Source: Eledone cirrhosa
Lineage: Eukaryota
Assembly: GCA_964016885.1 (NCBI GenBank)
Contig: OZ024749.1
Span: 46,624,001 to 46,688,000, forward strand
Length of the DNA: 64,000 nucleotides
Reading direction: 5' to 3'
In this document: piece after piece, positions 279-26,416 of the stretch
Layout: every line of letters begins with the position of its first letter
Numbering within the stretch: position 1 is the first letter of the stretch
Notes under the pieces: model-generated
Database searches by the model: none
What the model was told of the DNA's origin: nothing
Seen by the model: only the letters and a program-made list of their open reading frames with translations
Program-made: the position numbers and the translations under genes

Positions 279-694
279 CCAACAATAACAACACTTAGAA
301 TGAGGAATGTTCTAATAACTGACCATTGAGAGGAGAAGAGGACCTTTGACACTGAAATTCGTTTGTTTGAATTCATATGACTCCAGTTCCTCAGTGAAAT
401 AACAACCCAACAAGGAACTGGGCATATCAGAGTATTGACAATATTATACACCTCAACAACATATGTACTTGTCTATACCATTCTAATTCAAACTGCCTGA
501 AGAGGTCACAGCCAAAGATGGCTGTCACTGAAATATATATAGCAGTAATAAACGAAGCTAAATATTAATCATTTGACTTTTATTTAACTTTATTTTACAC
601 TACTCCGGAGTAACCAACCCAACCTGCGCACTTCGTCGAGTGCTCCAGCCTGCATACTGAGGTGTTGGTATACAACCAACATAAACTCAAAATC
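279..694 (+). mobile_element. Family G: PLE-like terminal fragment between (TA)n tracts, with hammerhead and tail hairpin
   Basis: Unique island bounded by (TA)n on both sides. Contains a hammerhead motif at 492-546 and a TACTC..GAGTG bulged hairpin at 601-642. Confidence 0.7.
492..546 (+). ncRNA. Type I minimal hammerhead ribozyme motif (family G)
   Basis: actgc-CTGAAGA-ggtcacagcca aaga tggctgtcact-GAA-Atatatat-A/gcagt. Perfect 5-bp stem I (actgc/gcagt), ~11-bp stem II with one C-C mismatch, palindromic stem III ATATATAT, AUA cleavage triplet ending at 541. Confidence 0.85.
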
Positions 695-3600
695 TATATA
701 TATATATATATATATAGCTTTTCTCTTTGTTGTTTACTTGTCTCACTCGCTTTACGCGTTTTAATTGTCCTAATAACTTAATTTAGTTATTATTGCACCA
801 ACGTGAGGTATATGATTTTTAATTCAATGAAATATCTATGATCGTTGGCAAATCACTGATGAGGGACTCATTTTATAACATGTTATCCATGTGCAACCTG
901 CAGTATTCTTCTTCCCATTTTTTCACATATATATATATATATATATATATATCCATTCTGCCTTAAAGGTGAAGTACTAATTCTGGACTGTTTGCCATTT
1001 GATTGAAAGTTACTATCATGTATATACACAAGTACATATCAAGTACATTGCAACTGTTTCCAATTCAATACGTTTGCATGTTCCTGCTGCGTTAATATAA
1101 AGTGTGCTTACGTTGCTATTATTTATCTTTTCTTGTCTTCCGATCCATTCAGCTTTCTTTATAAGTTGTGTGTGTATGCTCCAATATGTCCTCCCAGGAA
1201 TTTTACATTTCTGTTGGTGTTAGTATATTTCATAATGTTATTTTTTTTCCTTTTCGATATGTTTCTACATTGGTTGTGCGTTTGATTGAATTACTTTATT
1301 TTCGTGGAAGAATAGTTAATGTTATTCTAAGTGCCTCTCTCTCCATTCTTCTCTTTATATAATCTTTATATTTGCATCCAGCAATACTTTGTGTTTAATG
1401 ATATTGTATTTCTTTGTTATTTACGTGCATTTATCTTTTCTTCATTCGATCTTTCGATTTTCATATCGCTTGCTCAGATAATGTTTACGTCAATATTTTT
1501 TGTTTGCTGGTTTGAGTGAGGTTTACCATTTATTAGGATCAAACCTGATTCCTCTTGATTCTACCACTGTTCTATATTAAAAAAAAACGTTCGTATTGTG
1601 TATATTTGTGTGTTTTTTCTGCACGAAAATACACACTGAATCCTACTACACTTTATTTTATGTAGATCATGTGTTTGCTTATTTTAATCTAAATGAAGTT
1701 TACATTGAATCATGTTTACGGGCCTTTTTCTCCCTAATATCCGTCTATCAATTTATTGTAATTTTCAGAGAAAAACATATTTTGGTAAGGTGTAATACAC
1801 GTGTAGTCTATCTGTATTTTGTTCAAAGTAATTTCGTGGCATATTCAATAGACAATCGGCAAAAGTAAACGTTTTTCTAAAATGCCAGTCTAATATTGGG
1901 GGTAGTTGAATCAATTACGTCCTTTCTCGACATTTGCTGGATTTTTGCGTAAATGGGAAATATATAAGGTTAATATAAACAAAAAAATGTGCATCTTATT
2001 CACCATAGTAACATAAACAATGTCAATATCTTCCCGTTTGTCGTAGATAGTCCATCGTAGTTTCTAGTTAAATTCATTTATTAACATATATATGTTTTTC
2101 AGATTAGTATGTGGAGATATATTATGATCCTGGAGCGTTCTAAAACTGTATCTTGAACTTGTGCAACTGTTTCACTCATCGTCCATTCGTTGATATCATA
2201 TTTTGCATTGTTTTCTTTGTTGAGATTTACTATTATTAAATTTTCTGTTGGGAATATTATTGTTATATATTATTGCATATGGGCTTTCAATACATTGATG
2301 TTCAATTCTCACATCATTCATTACGACGATAACATTTTTATCTAACAGCCAACGACATTAGATATATCTATCCAGAATTTCGTTGCTGCGAAGGAGAAAA
2401 TGCTTTATTAATTTCTTGTCCATCATAAGGCAGAATAATACATAAAAATGGACAGTCTGTAAGAGGATATAGAAGAATAACTTTCTTTCAGATGAAAAAC
2501 AAAACAAAACAAAAATAAAATTCAAAACTGCATTATATTTCTATATATTTGATATAATTTGTGTTCTGCCACCTACTACACACTCAGGTAACAGCCAAGA
2601 TAGGTAAGTTCATATACATCTTCGAGGTACTTTGCTTGAAATTTGACATTCTACTTGATAATTTCCTAATATTTAAGAGTTATGCTTTTCATAAAAGTGA
2701 AAAAATAATCATTTCCCCCGTAAAGGGTATGTATATATACGAGATAATCGTACTACGAATAATATTCAATAAGCCTTACTGAAAAATTAATTTCCGTTCG
2801 TACTATAGTCTACTTTATATATGATGTCAATACTCTTTCCCTGTAAATTTCTATACGATTATTAAATGAATGGCAATAGTATGTTAACATATATCAGCTT
2901 TTTGTATTATAAAAATCTTAGTGAATCGTTATTTATGCATATATGTAAATGAAACAAATGCCATTTATAAACAATTCTCTCTGTTTTCATATATACAGAA
3001 GAGCAAATACACAGCCACATACATATGTATATACACACACACACACACACACACACACACATATATATATATATATATATATATATATATAGAGAGAGAG
3101 AGAGAGAGCGAGAGGTTATCACAGTGTCATATCATCTTACTACTCCCATGAAAAGGCTCTTCTGAACATATAAGTGGAAAGAAACTGGCACCGCTGTCGG
3201 TATTTTACATATCTATATACCCACTCTGCATCTCTCCTGGCATTGTGTACTGCCATAATTAGTACTCTCGCTATTTTCTCGCGCTCTCGCTCTCTCTCTA
3301 TCTTTATCTCTCTCTCTCTCTCTCTCTCTCTCTCTCTCTCTCTCTCTCCCTCTCTCTCTCTCTCTCTCGATATATATATATATATATATATATATATATA
3401 TATATATATATATATGTATATATATCGAAGGTATATATTGAGTTAGTAACTCAAAATATTCTCTTACAATTAAATAGCTCAAGGAAAAATAATGTTCCGG
3501 AACGTTCAATATAATTAAATATAAAAGAGTTTGGTGAGCTACTATAAATATCGAGTGATCTTAGCTGCTACTTTTAGGTTCTGGATGCCATGTGCGTTAT

Positions 3601-4580
3601 TTTATATAAGCACACCATTCAGTCTTCTGAGATACTTAGAAGTGAAGAGTTTACTAATTACACAACCACTGAAGAGCGATAGAATTGGTAATTCCCTATC
3701 ACTAAATTGCAAAATTGCATTACCAAATGCTATCTGGGTGTCTGATAGTTGTCACAATCTCGGTTAGTATTTTTTCTTAATTTATTCTTTTAAATTGAGC
3801 CTGGCAAACCGTATTGTTCATATTTAGTATTCTTTTCATCCAAGCCAATCTGGTCCCTTTGAACACATATATGTATATATGTGTGTTTATCTCTCTTTTG
3901 TATTCAATTATATATATATATATATATATATATATATATATATATATATATATATGACTAGTATACACATGATCTTAAGTGATGGAGAATTTGATATACT
4001 TCTTCTGATTTAAACACTTTAGTGTATAGAAGGATTCACCAAACCTAAGTGGAGTCTTTTCCAAAAACAAAACAAGATATAACATGTTTGGTTTGATCTG
4101 TAGAGCCACTCTCACATAAATAATATTTAAATAAGAAACATGTATACAATCTTAAATTTTACAATTGCTTACAGCTAGTGTTGGTTGCAACTTACTTAAT
4201 TATGATTTCTCTCTCTGTCATATCTCATTGTAATTGTTTTAGTGTTCCTTTCAAGGCAGCCGTTAACTAAATGTGTTTGTTGAATAAGATGAAGACAAAT
4301 ATTAACAATGCTCGCATCCGTTATTATAGCTAGGGAAAGAACCAGGAACTCATTGCTTCTATTGTGTTACATATAAAAGTCATTATAATTTCTATATGAA
4401 AGGATATGAATCACAATTAATTTATTAATGAGAAACTGTAAAACAAGCAGATGTTTTTTCATCTTTAACTACATACGGGAATGTACATATACACATATCT
4501 ATACGCATACATACATACATATATGGATACAAACACTCACGTATGTATGGATGGTACGTAAATACACACACAGACGCGCG

Positions 4581-4914
4581 CATATATATATATATATATA
4601 TATATGTGTATATAAATATATATATATATATATATGTGTATATATATATATATATATATATATATATATATATGTAAGTATATATGTATGTATATATATA
4701 TGTAAATATATATGTATATATATATATATACATATATATATATATATATATATATAGATATACATATAAATATATACATATATACATATATATATACACA
4801 CACAGATATATATATATATATATATGTATATATATATATATATATATATATATATATATATATATATATATATATATATATATATATATATATATATATA
4901 TATATATATATATA
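4581..4914. repeat. Long imperfect (TA)n microsatellite
   Basis: Direct reading. Source of the spurious YIYI ORFs. Confidence 0.95.
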
Positions 4915-5108
4915 TAGGAACCAGTAAAACCCCGACAGCTGAGCTCAAGCCGTTTCGACGGCTAATTCAGTCCAGAATTAGCCGTCGAAACGGCTTGAGC
5001 TCAGCTGTCGGGGCCTTACTGGTTCCTATTACCCACTCTACTACCTCAAGTATTGAGTACTTTGGTGCGTTATGGTCCACCTGGTTCCTTACCACATTTC
5101 CTTCGTTA
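4915..5108 (+). mobile_element. Family A copy 1: asymmetric fold-back element
   Basis: 54-bp inverted arms at 4915-4968 and 4975-5028, then an 80-bp tail ending ..catttccttcgtta. (TA)n on both sides. Nine copies in the window. Confidence 0.9.
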
Positions 5109-5218
5109 TATATATATATATATATACATATATATATATATATATATATACACATATATATATATACTTATATATATATATTTATATATATATATATATA
5201 TATATATATATATATATA

Positions 5219-5316
5219 TAACGAGGGAAATGTGGTAAGGAACCAGGTGGACCATAACGCACGAAAGTACTCAATACTTAGGGTAGTAGAGTGGGTAATA
5301 GGAACGAGCAGGACCC
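5219..5316 (-). mobile_element. Family A copy 2 (tail plus start of arm)
   Basis: taacgagggaaatgtggtaaggaaccagg..taggaacgagcaggaccc is the reverse complement of the copy 1 tail. Flanked by (TA)n. Confidence 0.9.
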
Positions 5317-25576: not shown

Positions 25577-25636
25577 TATATATATTATATATATATACTG
25601 TTTATATTATATATATATATATTATAAACAGTATAA

Positions 25637-25803
25637 GTAGAGCGTCGGACGCCATGCTTTCCAGTATAGTTAGTCCCTTTAGGATCTGAGTTCAAGTCCA
25701 ACCCAGGTTTACTTTGCCTTTCATTCTTACGGGGTCGATAAAATAAAGTACCAGTAATGTACTGGGTAATTGCTGGCCTTGTGCCAAATGTAGAAACAAT
25801 TAT
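25637..25803 (+). mobile_element. OK-like tRNA-derived SINE, nearly full length
   Basis: B-box-like gagttcaagtcc, core ctttgcctttcattcttacggggtcgataaaataaagtaccag, tail agaaacaattattatt. Confidence 0.9.
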
Positions 25804-25935
25804 TATTAATATTATTATAATTATTCTCTACATTCCTTACATCAAACTAAAATATGTTGACAATCTGTTTATAATGTCTTCCTTGTGAAAATTGTGGTCT
25901 TGTTTTGCTTAACTAATAAATATATGTATATATAT

Positions 25936-26012
25936 ATTAAAATAACAGATATTAGTTTAAGCAAAGAATCGGTGCATTCACCCTTAACGGGACATTCGGA
26001 AACATTCTGAAA
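25936..26012. mobile_element. Family E arm fragment
   Basis: aataacagatattagtttaagcaaagaatcggtgcattcacccttaacggg, ending in a small duplication. Flanked by (TA)n. Confidence 0.8.
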
Positions 26013-26231
26013 TATATATATATATATATATATATATATATATATATATATATATATATATATATATATATATATATATATATATATATATATATATATA
26101 TATATATTCATATATATATATATATATGTATTTATATGTATATATATATATATATATATACATATATATATATATACACACACACATATATATATATATA
26201 TATATATATATATATATATACGGAGAGAGAG

Positions 26232-26416
26232 AGATGAGATTTTACAGGACTAGAACTGTTTCATTCTTTAGATCTCATCAGATCCCTGATGATTTCTAAA
26301 GATTGAAACAGTCCCAGTCCTGTAGAATCTTATCTATATTAAAACTGTTATACTCTGCTATGTATTGAGTACCTTACCTACTGTGGTTACCTTCGATTCA
26401 ACTCGGAATATACGTA
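26232..26416 (+). mobile_element. Family C: fold-back plus tail
   Basis: Arms around catcag-atcc-ctgatg, a CTGATGA-stem-GAAA core, and a tail hairpin at 26351-26371. Confidence 0.85.

Follow-up and report, generated by a model that had tools for sequence, protein, structure and literature searches.

A short bulged hairpin, whose lower stem (RCTC paired with GAGY) and variable upper stem are separated on the 3′ side by a bulge that is predominantly of 2 nt, is a real feature of the ends of Penelope-like elements in the genome of Eledone cirrhosa, and in eight of nine families it occurs twice, once beside each of the two sites at which inserted copies end. We lean, with some reserve, toward reading this pair as a clade-wide, duplicated RNA docking signal that would program twin priming: a single RNA carrying both hairpins would engage two reverse transcriptase (RT)-endonucleases, each priming on one (TA)n strand 6 nt upstream of its own hairpin, so that every fold-back would have one end at each site. 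An earlier note, made from the window (the whole 64,000-nt stretch of contig OZ024749.1) alone, knew of no description of the motif, and none was found in the literature searched; subscription papers, Repbase entries, image-only figures and bioRxiv supplements fell outside that scope and may bear on novelty.

Occurrence, register and duplication of the hairpin

The seven hairpins that the note had placed in families G, A, B, I, H, N and C were all found (Table 1). The window has 15 matches to a strict form of the motif, whereas 100 block-wise shuffles average 0.76 (maximum 4). Across 864 kb (the window plus 800 kb of neutral genome), 119 matches have a 2-nt bulge, 28–44 each have bulges of 1, 3, 4 or 5 nt, and 69 have none; the mirrored bulge, counted in the same scan, gives 104. 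The bulge had been described as always 2 nt, which holds as a strong tendency, one family having a 1-nt bulge. In a motif-blind sample of 100 fold-back tails (35–145 nt), 60 have the hairpin no more than 20 nt from the arm end (55 of these at 5–9 nt), and 12 of 28 sequence clusters are motif-positive, figures that include 15 family G tails enriched by a targeted search, the window copy of family H counted via a later partner, and one mis-clustered match. Shuffled tails, the comparison proposed in the note, average 0.2 matches (maximum 2), and reverse-complemented tails have 0. The seven window tails have in common only the motif and AT-rich words, in agreement with the claim that they are otherwise unalignable. 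The mismatch in family H is private to the window copy: the stem is intact and the bulge pyrimidine-led at 13 of 14 other H loci, and the bulge differs at the remaining one. A further family, read by eye with its relatives, has a variant whose lower stem includes a U.G wobble.

Table 1. Hairpins, hammerhead ribozymes and fold-backs located in the window.
Feature	Position	Strand	Remarks
Family G type I hammerhead ribozyme (pLTR)	492..546	+	core at 497; stems I and II paired
Family G hairpin copy 1	602..641	+	tail to 694, followed by (TA)n; this copy has no inverted arm
Further family, hairpin variant	3477..3530	−	U.G wobble in lower stem; bounds approximate, cluster at 3471–3538
Family A fold-back	4917..5106	+	inverted arm 4917–4968; site a mirrored at 5026; tail 5027–5106 (site b)
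Family A hairpin copy 1	5035..5058	+	copy 2 and ORF in read-through loci
Family B fold-back	5374..5842	+	inverted arm 5374–5560; site a 5750; tail to ~5842
Family B hammerhead cores	5652; 5472	+; −	
Family B hairpin copy 1	5758..5777	+	copy 2 and ORF at other loci
Family I fold-back	6586..7251	−	inverted arm 7124–7251; hammerhead core 7045; tail ~6695–6586
Family I hairpin copy 1	6648..6688	−	
Family H fold-back	18410..18712	+	inverted arm 18410–18471; site a 18633; tail to 18712
Family H hammerhead-like core	from ~18500		long stem II
Family H hairpin copy 1	18641..18665	+	mutated here, intact in family
Family N hairpin copy 2	23940..23955	−	intact; single C-G pair closes 4-nt loop above bulge
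Family N hairpin copy 1, inverted unit	24012..24033	−	
Family N hairpin copy 1	24599..24620	+	
Family N hairpin copy 2	24677..24692	+	one substitution in 3′ strand
Family C fold-back	26232..26414	+	inverted arm ~26232–26281; hammerhead core 26286; site a 26345; tail to 26414
Family C hairpin copy 1	26352..26370	+	copy 2 a vestige in this family
Family K fold-back	63441..63673	+	arms 63441–63583; worn copy 1 63590–63635; tail end ~63673

The hairpin stands in fixed register to the arm end. The spread of 2–8 nt first given for this distance narrows to 6–7 nt because TA microhomology is now allowed for; the spacer between element end and hairpin is 6(–7) nt long and begins with T or TA, a 6-nt spacer being compatible at 16 of 21 sites and the other five not fitting. 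The earlier reader overlooked the duplication, by which each element end has its own hairpin within the pLTR/5′ UTR: the hammerhead is followed by site a and copy 1, then by the tail, site b and copy 2, and last by the start codon. Copy 1 starts ~6 nt beyond the short (arm) end, which is site a; copy 2 starts ~6 nt beyond the tail end, which is site b, lies ~22–65 nt before the start codon and is visible only in read-through copies. The statement that the hairpin ends 40–65 nt from the element end needs amending at 24599, where family N reads through into a second hairpin.

Families K and N showed copy 2, which was thereby predicted elsewhere and then found by genome search. The K fold-back lies outside the span of the earlier note, and other K loci have the intact structure and an ORF. 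The search for a tail end followed by RCTC gave 90 matches for G, 316 for A and 46 for B; the full copy-2 hairpin was present at 10/10 fetched A loci, 10/10 B and 16/20 G (of the other four, one has a wobble and three are mutated), and in many of these a Hydra-type ORF then follows. Arms, absent from the window copy of G, also occur at other G loci. Copy 2 is likewise present in N, in two further families and in I, for which the pattern search gave 0 but DNA matches then yielded read-throughs, their copy 2 having T-A at stem position 1. For family H the pattern search gave 0 and the DNA matches included no read-through; none of ten fetched family C loci has a full copy 2, yet this family makes normal a/b fold-backs. 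Reversed-pattern controls for the G, A, B and C searches all gave 0 but are weak, because the genome would not be expected to contain a family's sequence reversed, and the evidence for copy 2 lies instead in its fixed position and partner strand.

Elements end at two sharp sites regardless of how far off the hammerhead (~55 to 350 nt) or the start codon lies. Over all loci, 65 fold-backs have a/b ends and three b/other, with no a/a or b/b; in the neutral sample (families A, B, C, G and K; n = 39) the counts are 37, 2, 0 and 0, the family I rows (327 ‘b’ matches, one a/b, two b/b) having been left out because the TA-rich reference matched plain microsatellite. Another 98 seemingly symmetric fold-backs were rejected, 26 being neighbours and 72 strand-wise rows that are mostly artefacts of internal TA runs. 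Public contigs of the same or a close species, from one other study whose kind of run is not on record, have TA loose ends at both K sites (L115:1383 and 1471).

Both stems covary, as the note had claimed, when sequence clusters are compared on a pairing-blind anchor. The first lower-stem pair is Watson-Crick in 29/50 clusters (14.7 shuffled) and the first upper-stem pair in 17/19 (8.6 shuffled), the latter only when the bulge is 2 nt; the shuffle p-values overstate independence because the families share descent. Alone, the hairpin is weak: the minimum-energy fold includes it in 2/7 window tails, and lower-stem pairing probabilities for both copies range from 0.0 to 0.96. In families G and K the predicted fold prefers pairing between copy 1 and copy 2. 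A MAFFT alignment of 16 hairpins was set aside because the 5′ strands were misaligned, and an Rfam search of the window at gathering score gave no match, hairpin and hammerheads included.

The Hydra clade and a putative retrozyme

The families had been called unrelated, a view overturned by read-through of A, B, C and G into Hydra-clade Penelope-like ORFs that are 40–52% identical. The hairpin families thus appear to be members of one clade, the Hydra group of Penelope-like elements, H, I and N being placed there without a linked ORF. Hydra elements have an RWK-type motif, DKT instead of DKG, a CxCx5C linker and, C-terminally, a GIY-YIG domain lacking CCHH, together with a hammerhead in the pLTR, a (TA)n target, an inverted 5′-truncated copy and a one-sided tail (Craig et al., 2021; PMC8557442). 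The assignment was made by these ORF and insertion hallmarks: RWR/RWK in A, B, C, G and K; DKT/DKS, instead of DKG, in A, B, C, K and G; in the family K ORF (L075:3214-5301) the CxCx5C linker, a C-terminal GIY-YIG without CCHH and a CxxC near a conserved E; and the same target, inverted copy and one-sided tail. A type I hammerhead is clear in G, B, C and I, has a long stem II in H and an altered core in K; none was recognised in A and N. Tails are ~70–100 nt here and bounded by two hairpin copies, whereas the available part of the 2021 survey gives 30–40 bp and names no tail motif (PMC8557442). The hairpin sits unremarked in its consensus file.

Assignment to Penelope-like ends stands, given the hammerhead cores upstream and read-through into ORFs with RT and GIY-YIG domains; a signal common to all Penelope-like elements does not, a Nematis-type element of the same genome being without the hairpin. 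By eye, Hydra consensuses published for coral and sea cucumber also have the hairpin, Hydra-1_Ajap having two at its 5′ end; no motif was seen in Hydra-1_Obim and only a doubtful one in Hydra-1_Amil. By eye, no RCTC/GAGY hairpin is apparent in the RNA letters of Fig. S1 for the Poseidon element PAc, as far as that source was available (Frangieh et al., 2024; PMC11167929). A search with the family K N-terminus yielded 11,276 first-look candidates, relatives included, and many K frames have 713 codons. Pfam gave one weak RVT_1 match among 10 ORF pieces, on a non-Hydra piece; a sequence-profile search of solved structures with the Hydra protein gave none, and a fold search ranked TERT first, with no Penelope structure among the matches listed.

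Family I has a ~660-bp tandem period and, in 15 loci, no Hydra ORF hallmark, but keeps both hairpin copies; as an ORF-less tandem unit with a type I hammerhead (7045, minus strand) it is classed from its sequence as a putative non-LTR retrozyme. Such elements are likewise ORF-less tandem units with type I hammerheads from pLTRs, and the available parts of the papers describing them name no cis signal for mobilisation (Cervera and de la Peña, 2020, PMC7229834; Li et al., 2026, 10.64898/2026.07.22.740005); the available text of the 2026 preprint does not use the words hairpin, tail or bulge. In a metagenome scan, four of seven loci were near-identical, with a 15-nt RCTC..GAGY hairpin of ambiguous bulge right after the hammerhead, and the other three were uninformative. 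A search with a family K stretch found no RNA holder among those listed.

Origin of the inverted, one-sided insertion

The note had proposed a cis signal that fixes where the inverted copy begins. Covariation and the fixed register to the arm end agree with such a signal, but a second copy fixes the tail end, and with it a marker of the arm end becomes an explanation of the whole asymmetric insertion. We infer that the hairpin is recognised by the RT or the endonuclease; probably each hairpin is the RNA dock of one RT-endonuclease and sets where priming occurs on the nicked (TA)n target. The hairpin would fold in the RNA and be held by protein; two enzymes, likely a dimer, would nick both target strands; and the TA-ended 3′ end of the target would pair over 1–5 nt with the UA-like spacer, so that copying would be primed just 5′ of the hairpin. 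One cDNA would start at site a and one at site b, and the two 5′-truncated cDNAs, joined head to head, would give the inverted arm, with the stretch from a to b as the one-sided tail. Two starts would therefore produce an inverted pair with a one-sided tail, and copy 2, which lies 3′ of start b, would remain uncopied at that end and be seen only in tandem or full-length copies. Hairpin-set priming, with the binding and priming it would entail, is the likely account of the tail. In ORF-bearing K copies, 16/70 5′ junctions fall within 27 nt at copy 2 and 30/70 across the next 390 nt, a pile-up to be expected if a bound hairpin blocks the RT. Counting against this account are family C, whose fold-backs are normal with copy 2 a vestige, the missing H read-through and the lack of a linked ORF in H, I and N, the weak fold of the isolated hairpin, the thin strand evidence, the five sites that do not fit 6 nt, and the consensuses Hydra-1_Obim and Hydra-1_Amil.

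Protein-bound bulged stem-loops set the start or stop of copying in the telomerase template boundary element, hepadnavirus epsilon and the R2 3′ UTR. The Hydra signal has no sequence or Rfam match to these RT-positioning RNAs and differs from them in being duplicated and in setting, on our reading, two opposite-strand starts. In PAc, both strands of an AT-rich target are nicked and the RT starts internally on the RNA, at two sites that delimit the tail, downstream of a hammerhead, with a dimer predicted (Frangieh et al., 2024; PMC11167929). PAc differs in belonging to another clade and in starting inside the ORF, within one AC-rich stem loop; the available part of that paper names no repeated motif and does not report the strict one-of-each end pairing seen here.

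It is unlikely, though deserving of attention, that the hairpins act instead in single-stranded cDNA, a longer cDNA being made first and the GIY-YIG endonuclease, at a mirror-image hairpin, then cutting or transferring ~6 nt away at a TA-like site as an intermediate is resolved. The lower stem is identical read on either strand, as in the 104 mirrored-bulge matches, the spacer is AT-rich like the target, and the family K copy 2 loop would presumably be stable on either strand. Craig et al. (PMC8557442), in the part available, attribute the tail to endonuclease-mediated resolution, and Frangieh et al. (PMC11167929), likewise, cite a dependence of D. virilis endonuclease cleavage on a tail. Against this, the PAc RT starts internally on RNA exactly at the tail ends (PMC11167929, available part), upper-stem wobbles lean, on thin evidence, to the sense strand (7 G.U against 3 A.C), and one wobble-containing lower-stem variant pairs on that strand only.

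An improbable reading is that the hairpins have a different role (control of translation by the ORF protein, folding of the ribozyme, or a promoter or RNA 5′ end) and that ends fall near TA-like spacers only by target microhomology. The short distance from copy 2 to the start codon (~22–65 nt) and the AT-rich pLTRs would suit it, and an RNA 5′ end would also make 5′ junctions cluster at copy 2; but pLTRs contain many TA-like words, yet ends occur only at two sharp sites 6–7 nt before hairpins, strict a/b pairing is left unexplained, and ORF-less family I retains both copies. Chance or leftover similarity without function is hardly credible: the motif is short, the families are homologous and a few high-copy ones dominate raw counts, but stems covary while flanks are unalignable, the motif is kept across phyla and at two fixed sites, and the motif-blind tail test, end pairing and register contradict it.

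As far as the two sources were available, the 2021 survey sees a need for an in vitro system (PMC8557442) and the 2024 work describes two start sites without naming what sets them (PMC11167929). Inverted and one-side-tailed insertions of Penelope-like elements are a long-open puzzle, both parts of which twin hairpins would account for, and a short motif that keeps a fixed distance to either end in different families and phyla makes this open to testing with few RNA mutations. The hairpin pair also provides a boundary rule for annotating very abundant repeats, and the hairpin is a candidate signal by which ORF-less retrozymes borrow an enzyme. If twin priming is true, it would supply the tail and inverted structure of Penelope elements with their first cis-acting rule, and the hairpin would be a portable 15–25-nt element that sets the start of a telomerase-like RT.

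Pattern and covariation of the hairpin

The tails of these Penelope-like insertions carry a bulged hairpin (an RCTC stem, a 2-nt 3′ bulge and GAGY), and all seven window hairpins described in the earlier note, in families G, A, B, I, H, N and C, were confirmed in place. Strict motif matches number 15 in the window against 0.76 in shuffles. Of 100 tails from a motif-blind search for fold-backs (insertions with an inverted arm and a one-sided tail), 60 contain the motif, as do 12 of 28 clusters; shuffles yield 0.2 motif-bearing tails. A targeted search had contributed 15 of these tails, all of family G, and two matches are doubtful. 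In 55 of the 60 the motif lies 5–9 nt beyond the arm end. Across the genomic sample, about 25 clusters, counted by eye, have the motif 38–90 nt ahead of a TA run. Its parts are RCTC, 1 to at least 6 upper-stem pairs around any loop of 3 to ~70 nt, a T-led 2-nt bulge, GAGY and often RCTY. The 2-nt bulge, earlier thought invariable, dominates across 864 kb, made up of the window and 800 kb taken irrespective of content: it has 119 matches, other bulge lengths 28–44 and unbulged forms 69. One family has a 1-nt bulge.

The covariation of the stem described earlier is borne out: with an anchor indifferent to pairing, 29 of 50 clusters have a Watson-Crick first pair vs. 14.7 with shuffled partners, the many two-member clusters adding noise. 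In 19 clusters with RCTC/GAGY stems (4 reverse-strand reads of known families removed), upper pairs 1, 2, and 3 are Watson-Crick in 17, 12, and 11 vs. 8.6, 6.3, and 5.2, with no excess of upper pairing at other bulge lengths; because the families are related, clusters are not independent draws. Copy 2 of family I (see below) adds a further first-pair type, T-A.

Hairpin copies and insertion ends

Since families K and N have the hairpin twice, other families were predicted to have a second copy just beyond the tail end, and it was then searched for. Copy 2 matches numbered 90 in G, 316 in A and 46 in B, and the complete hairpin was present in 16/20, 10/10 and 10/10 fetched loci, respectively; copy 2 is also present in I, N, and two further families. 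Family C, with 144 read-throughs, retains only its 3′ half (intact in 0 of 10 loci), and the pattern search gave no read-through for family H. Two copies are found in eight of the nine families that have a read-through. A fixed hairpin position past the arm end holds, as proposed earlier; the 2–8 nt range gives way to a 6-nt spacer, which fits 16 of 21 sites given TA microhomology, the five misfits including one non-family match and the G tail end, mis-called by the script.

Insertion ends are nearly confined, in similar numbers, to site a (ahead of copy 1) and site b (ahead of copy 2). Fold-backs pair an a end with a b end: over all loci, 65 are a/b, 3 b/other and none alike, and 37 are a/b, 2 b/other and none alike for A, B, C, G, and K in the neutral sample, fetched regardless of content (family I, with 1 a/b and 2 b/b, was left out as an artefact). 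Independent choice of ends would give like ends in about half. In public contigs, TA loose ends fall at family K's two sites as well. In 70 ORF-bearing K copies, 5′ junctions cluster at copy 2: relative to it, they fall at −6 to +20 (16), −11 to −400 (30) or further up (24), in a query that left out junctions beyond +26.

RCTY frequently adjoins GAGY 3′ in both copies, which makes a near-palindrome, so that the 3′ strands of the two copies can pair together; RNAfold favors this pairing in family G, and it could be a switch or dimer contact. Downstream of copy 1, most families have one or two more hairpins before the tail end, without common sequence.

Positions of features in the window and in fetched loci (L-numbers)
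Feature	Locus	Position	Strand	Remark
RCTY after GAGY	window	642–645, 5778–5781
Hairpins between copy 1 and tail end	window	642–694, 5059–5106, 5778–5842
Family A copies	window; L168–L177	4917–5106 (window)		family with ~3.5-kb full-length tandem units
Short A and C tandem derivatives	L170, L171, L193, L194			~210–300 bp
Hammerhead	window	15230	+	linked to Nematis-type family by eye
Hammerhead	window	33359	−	linked to Nematis-type family by eye
Nematis-type element	L080	4005–7655	−	1,217-codon frame, long Asn-rich insert
Retrozyme-like tandem unit with hammerhead	L057	7453, 7995, 8547 (reverse-strand)	−	~550 bp
Retrozyme-like tandem unit with hammerhead	window	~59836	−	~550 bp
Fold-back family	L106 (G000:C19 block)	6491–6844		65-nt tail
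Ten-letter word	L161–L164			directly after stop codon

Identity and relatives of the elements

Families G, B, C, and I have hammerhead cores upstream of the hairpin, on its strand. In A, B, C, G, and K, read-through copies enter ORFs with RWK/RWR and DKT; the K ORF adds a CxCx5C linker and a GIY-YIG domain lacking CCHH. All of these are stated as Hydra-clade marks in PMC8557442. These five ORFs share 40–53% identity over ~400 residues, contrary to the earlier view that the families are otherwise unrelated; 580 of 8,000 scored candidates are relatives at E ≤ 1e-30, and telomerase is the best fold match of the predicted Hydra protein model. No ORF was linked to H, I or N in the loci examined, I being an ORF-less tandem (~660 bp unit).

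Family A is the most abundant in the sample, and no hammerhead core is recognizable near its tail at the tabulated loci; the K core is altered, and both families spread well. The short tandem derivatives of A and C, deleted from ORF start to pLTR, look from their structure to be emerging retrozyme-like units.

The Nematis-type element of the same genome lacks the motif in its 47–60-nt tail, which lies inside the ORF start. The ~550-bp unit of L057 seemingly has two end sites without an RCTC/GAGY hairpin, and the L106 tail opens with a possibly divergent bulged hairpin.

Six Hydra consensuses (Craig et al., PMC8557442) were scanned by eye. Hydra-2_Amil (coral) and Hydra-2_Ajap (sea cucumber) have an intact hairpin at the 3′ end, Hydra-1_Ajap has it twice at the 5′ end, and Hydra-1_Crog (sea louse) has an imperfect hairpin at either end, of which one shows compensation at the third pair; that of Hydra-1_Amil is doubtful, and none was seen in Hydra-1_Obim. 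The ten-letter word of L161–L164 is common with the distant Hydra-1_Amil and Hydra-1_Ajap, where it likewise directly follows the stop codon, and resembles the hairpin 3′ strand.

A proposed role in initiation

The Hydra clade, its tail and two-site initiation are already known. PAc, the one Penelope-like protein known from in vitro work, nicks AT-rich DNA on both strands and starts reverse transcription at two internal RNA sites bounding the tail (PMC11167929). Rfam gave no match in the window, and the openly readable literature (subscription papers, Repbase and image-only figures being outside reach) gave no account of the motif, of its occurring twice or of each site supplying one end.

The simplest reading of the sequences is that the hairpin pair docks reverse transcriptase-endonucleases and sets the two starts. 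Beyond the observed hairpin positions, covariation and end pairing, we infer binding, priming, enzyme number and the joining step: each hairpin would dock one enzyme, and a TA-ended primer would be offered the UA-like spacer that lies 5′ of the hairpin; starts on opposite strands would yield two cDNAs, joined head to head, and the tail would be the stretch between them. Copy 2 would stay uncopied at the b end, which would explain why the earlier note saw a single hairpin. Against this mechanism count family C, weak stand-alone folding (the hairpin is in the minimum-energy fold for 2 of 7 window tails), the competing copy-to-copy pairing in G and K, and thin strand evidence (7 G·U vs. 3 A·C). 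The main rival, in which the endonuclease resolves cDNA at its mirrored hairpin, is judged unlikely. As a candidate cis signal positioning a reverse transcriptase, the hairpin makes the origin of the inverted Penelope insertion with its one-sided tail directly testable.
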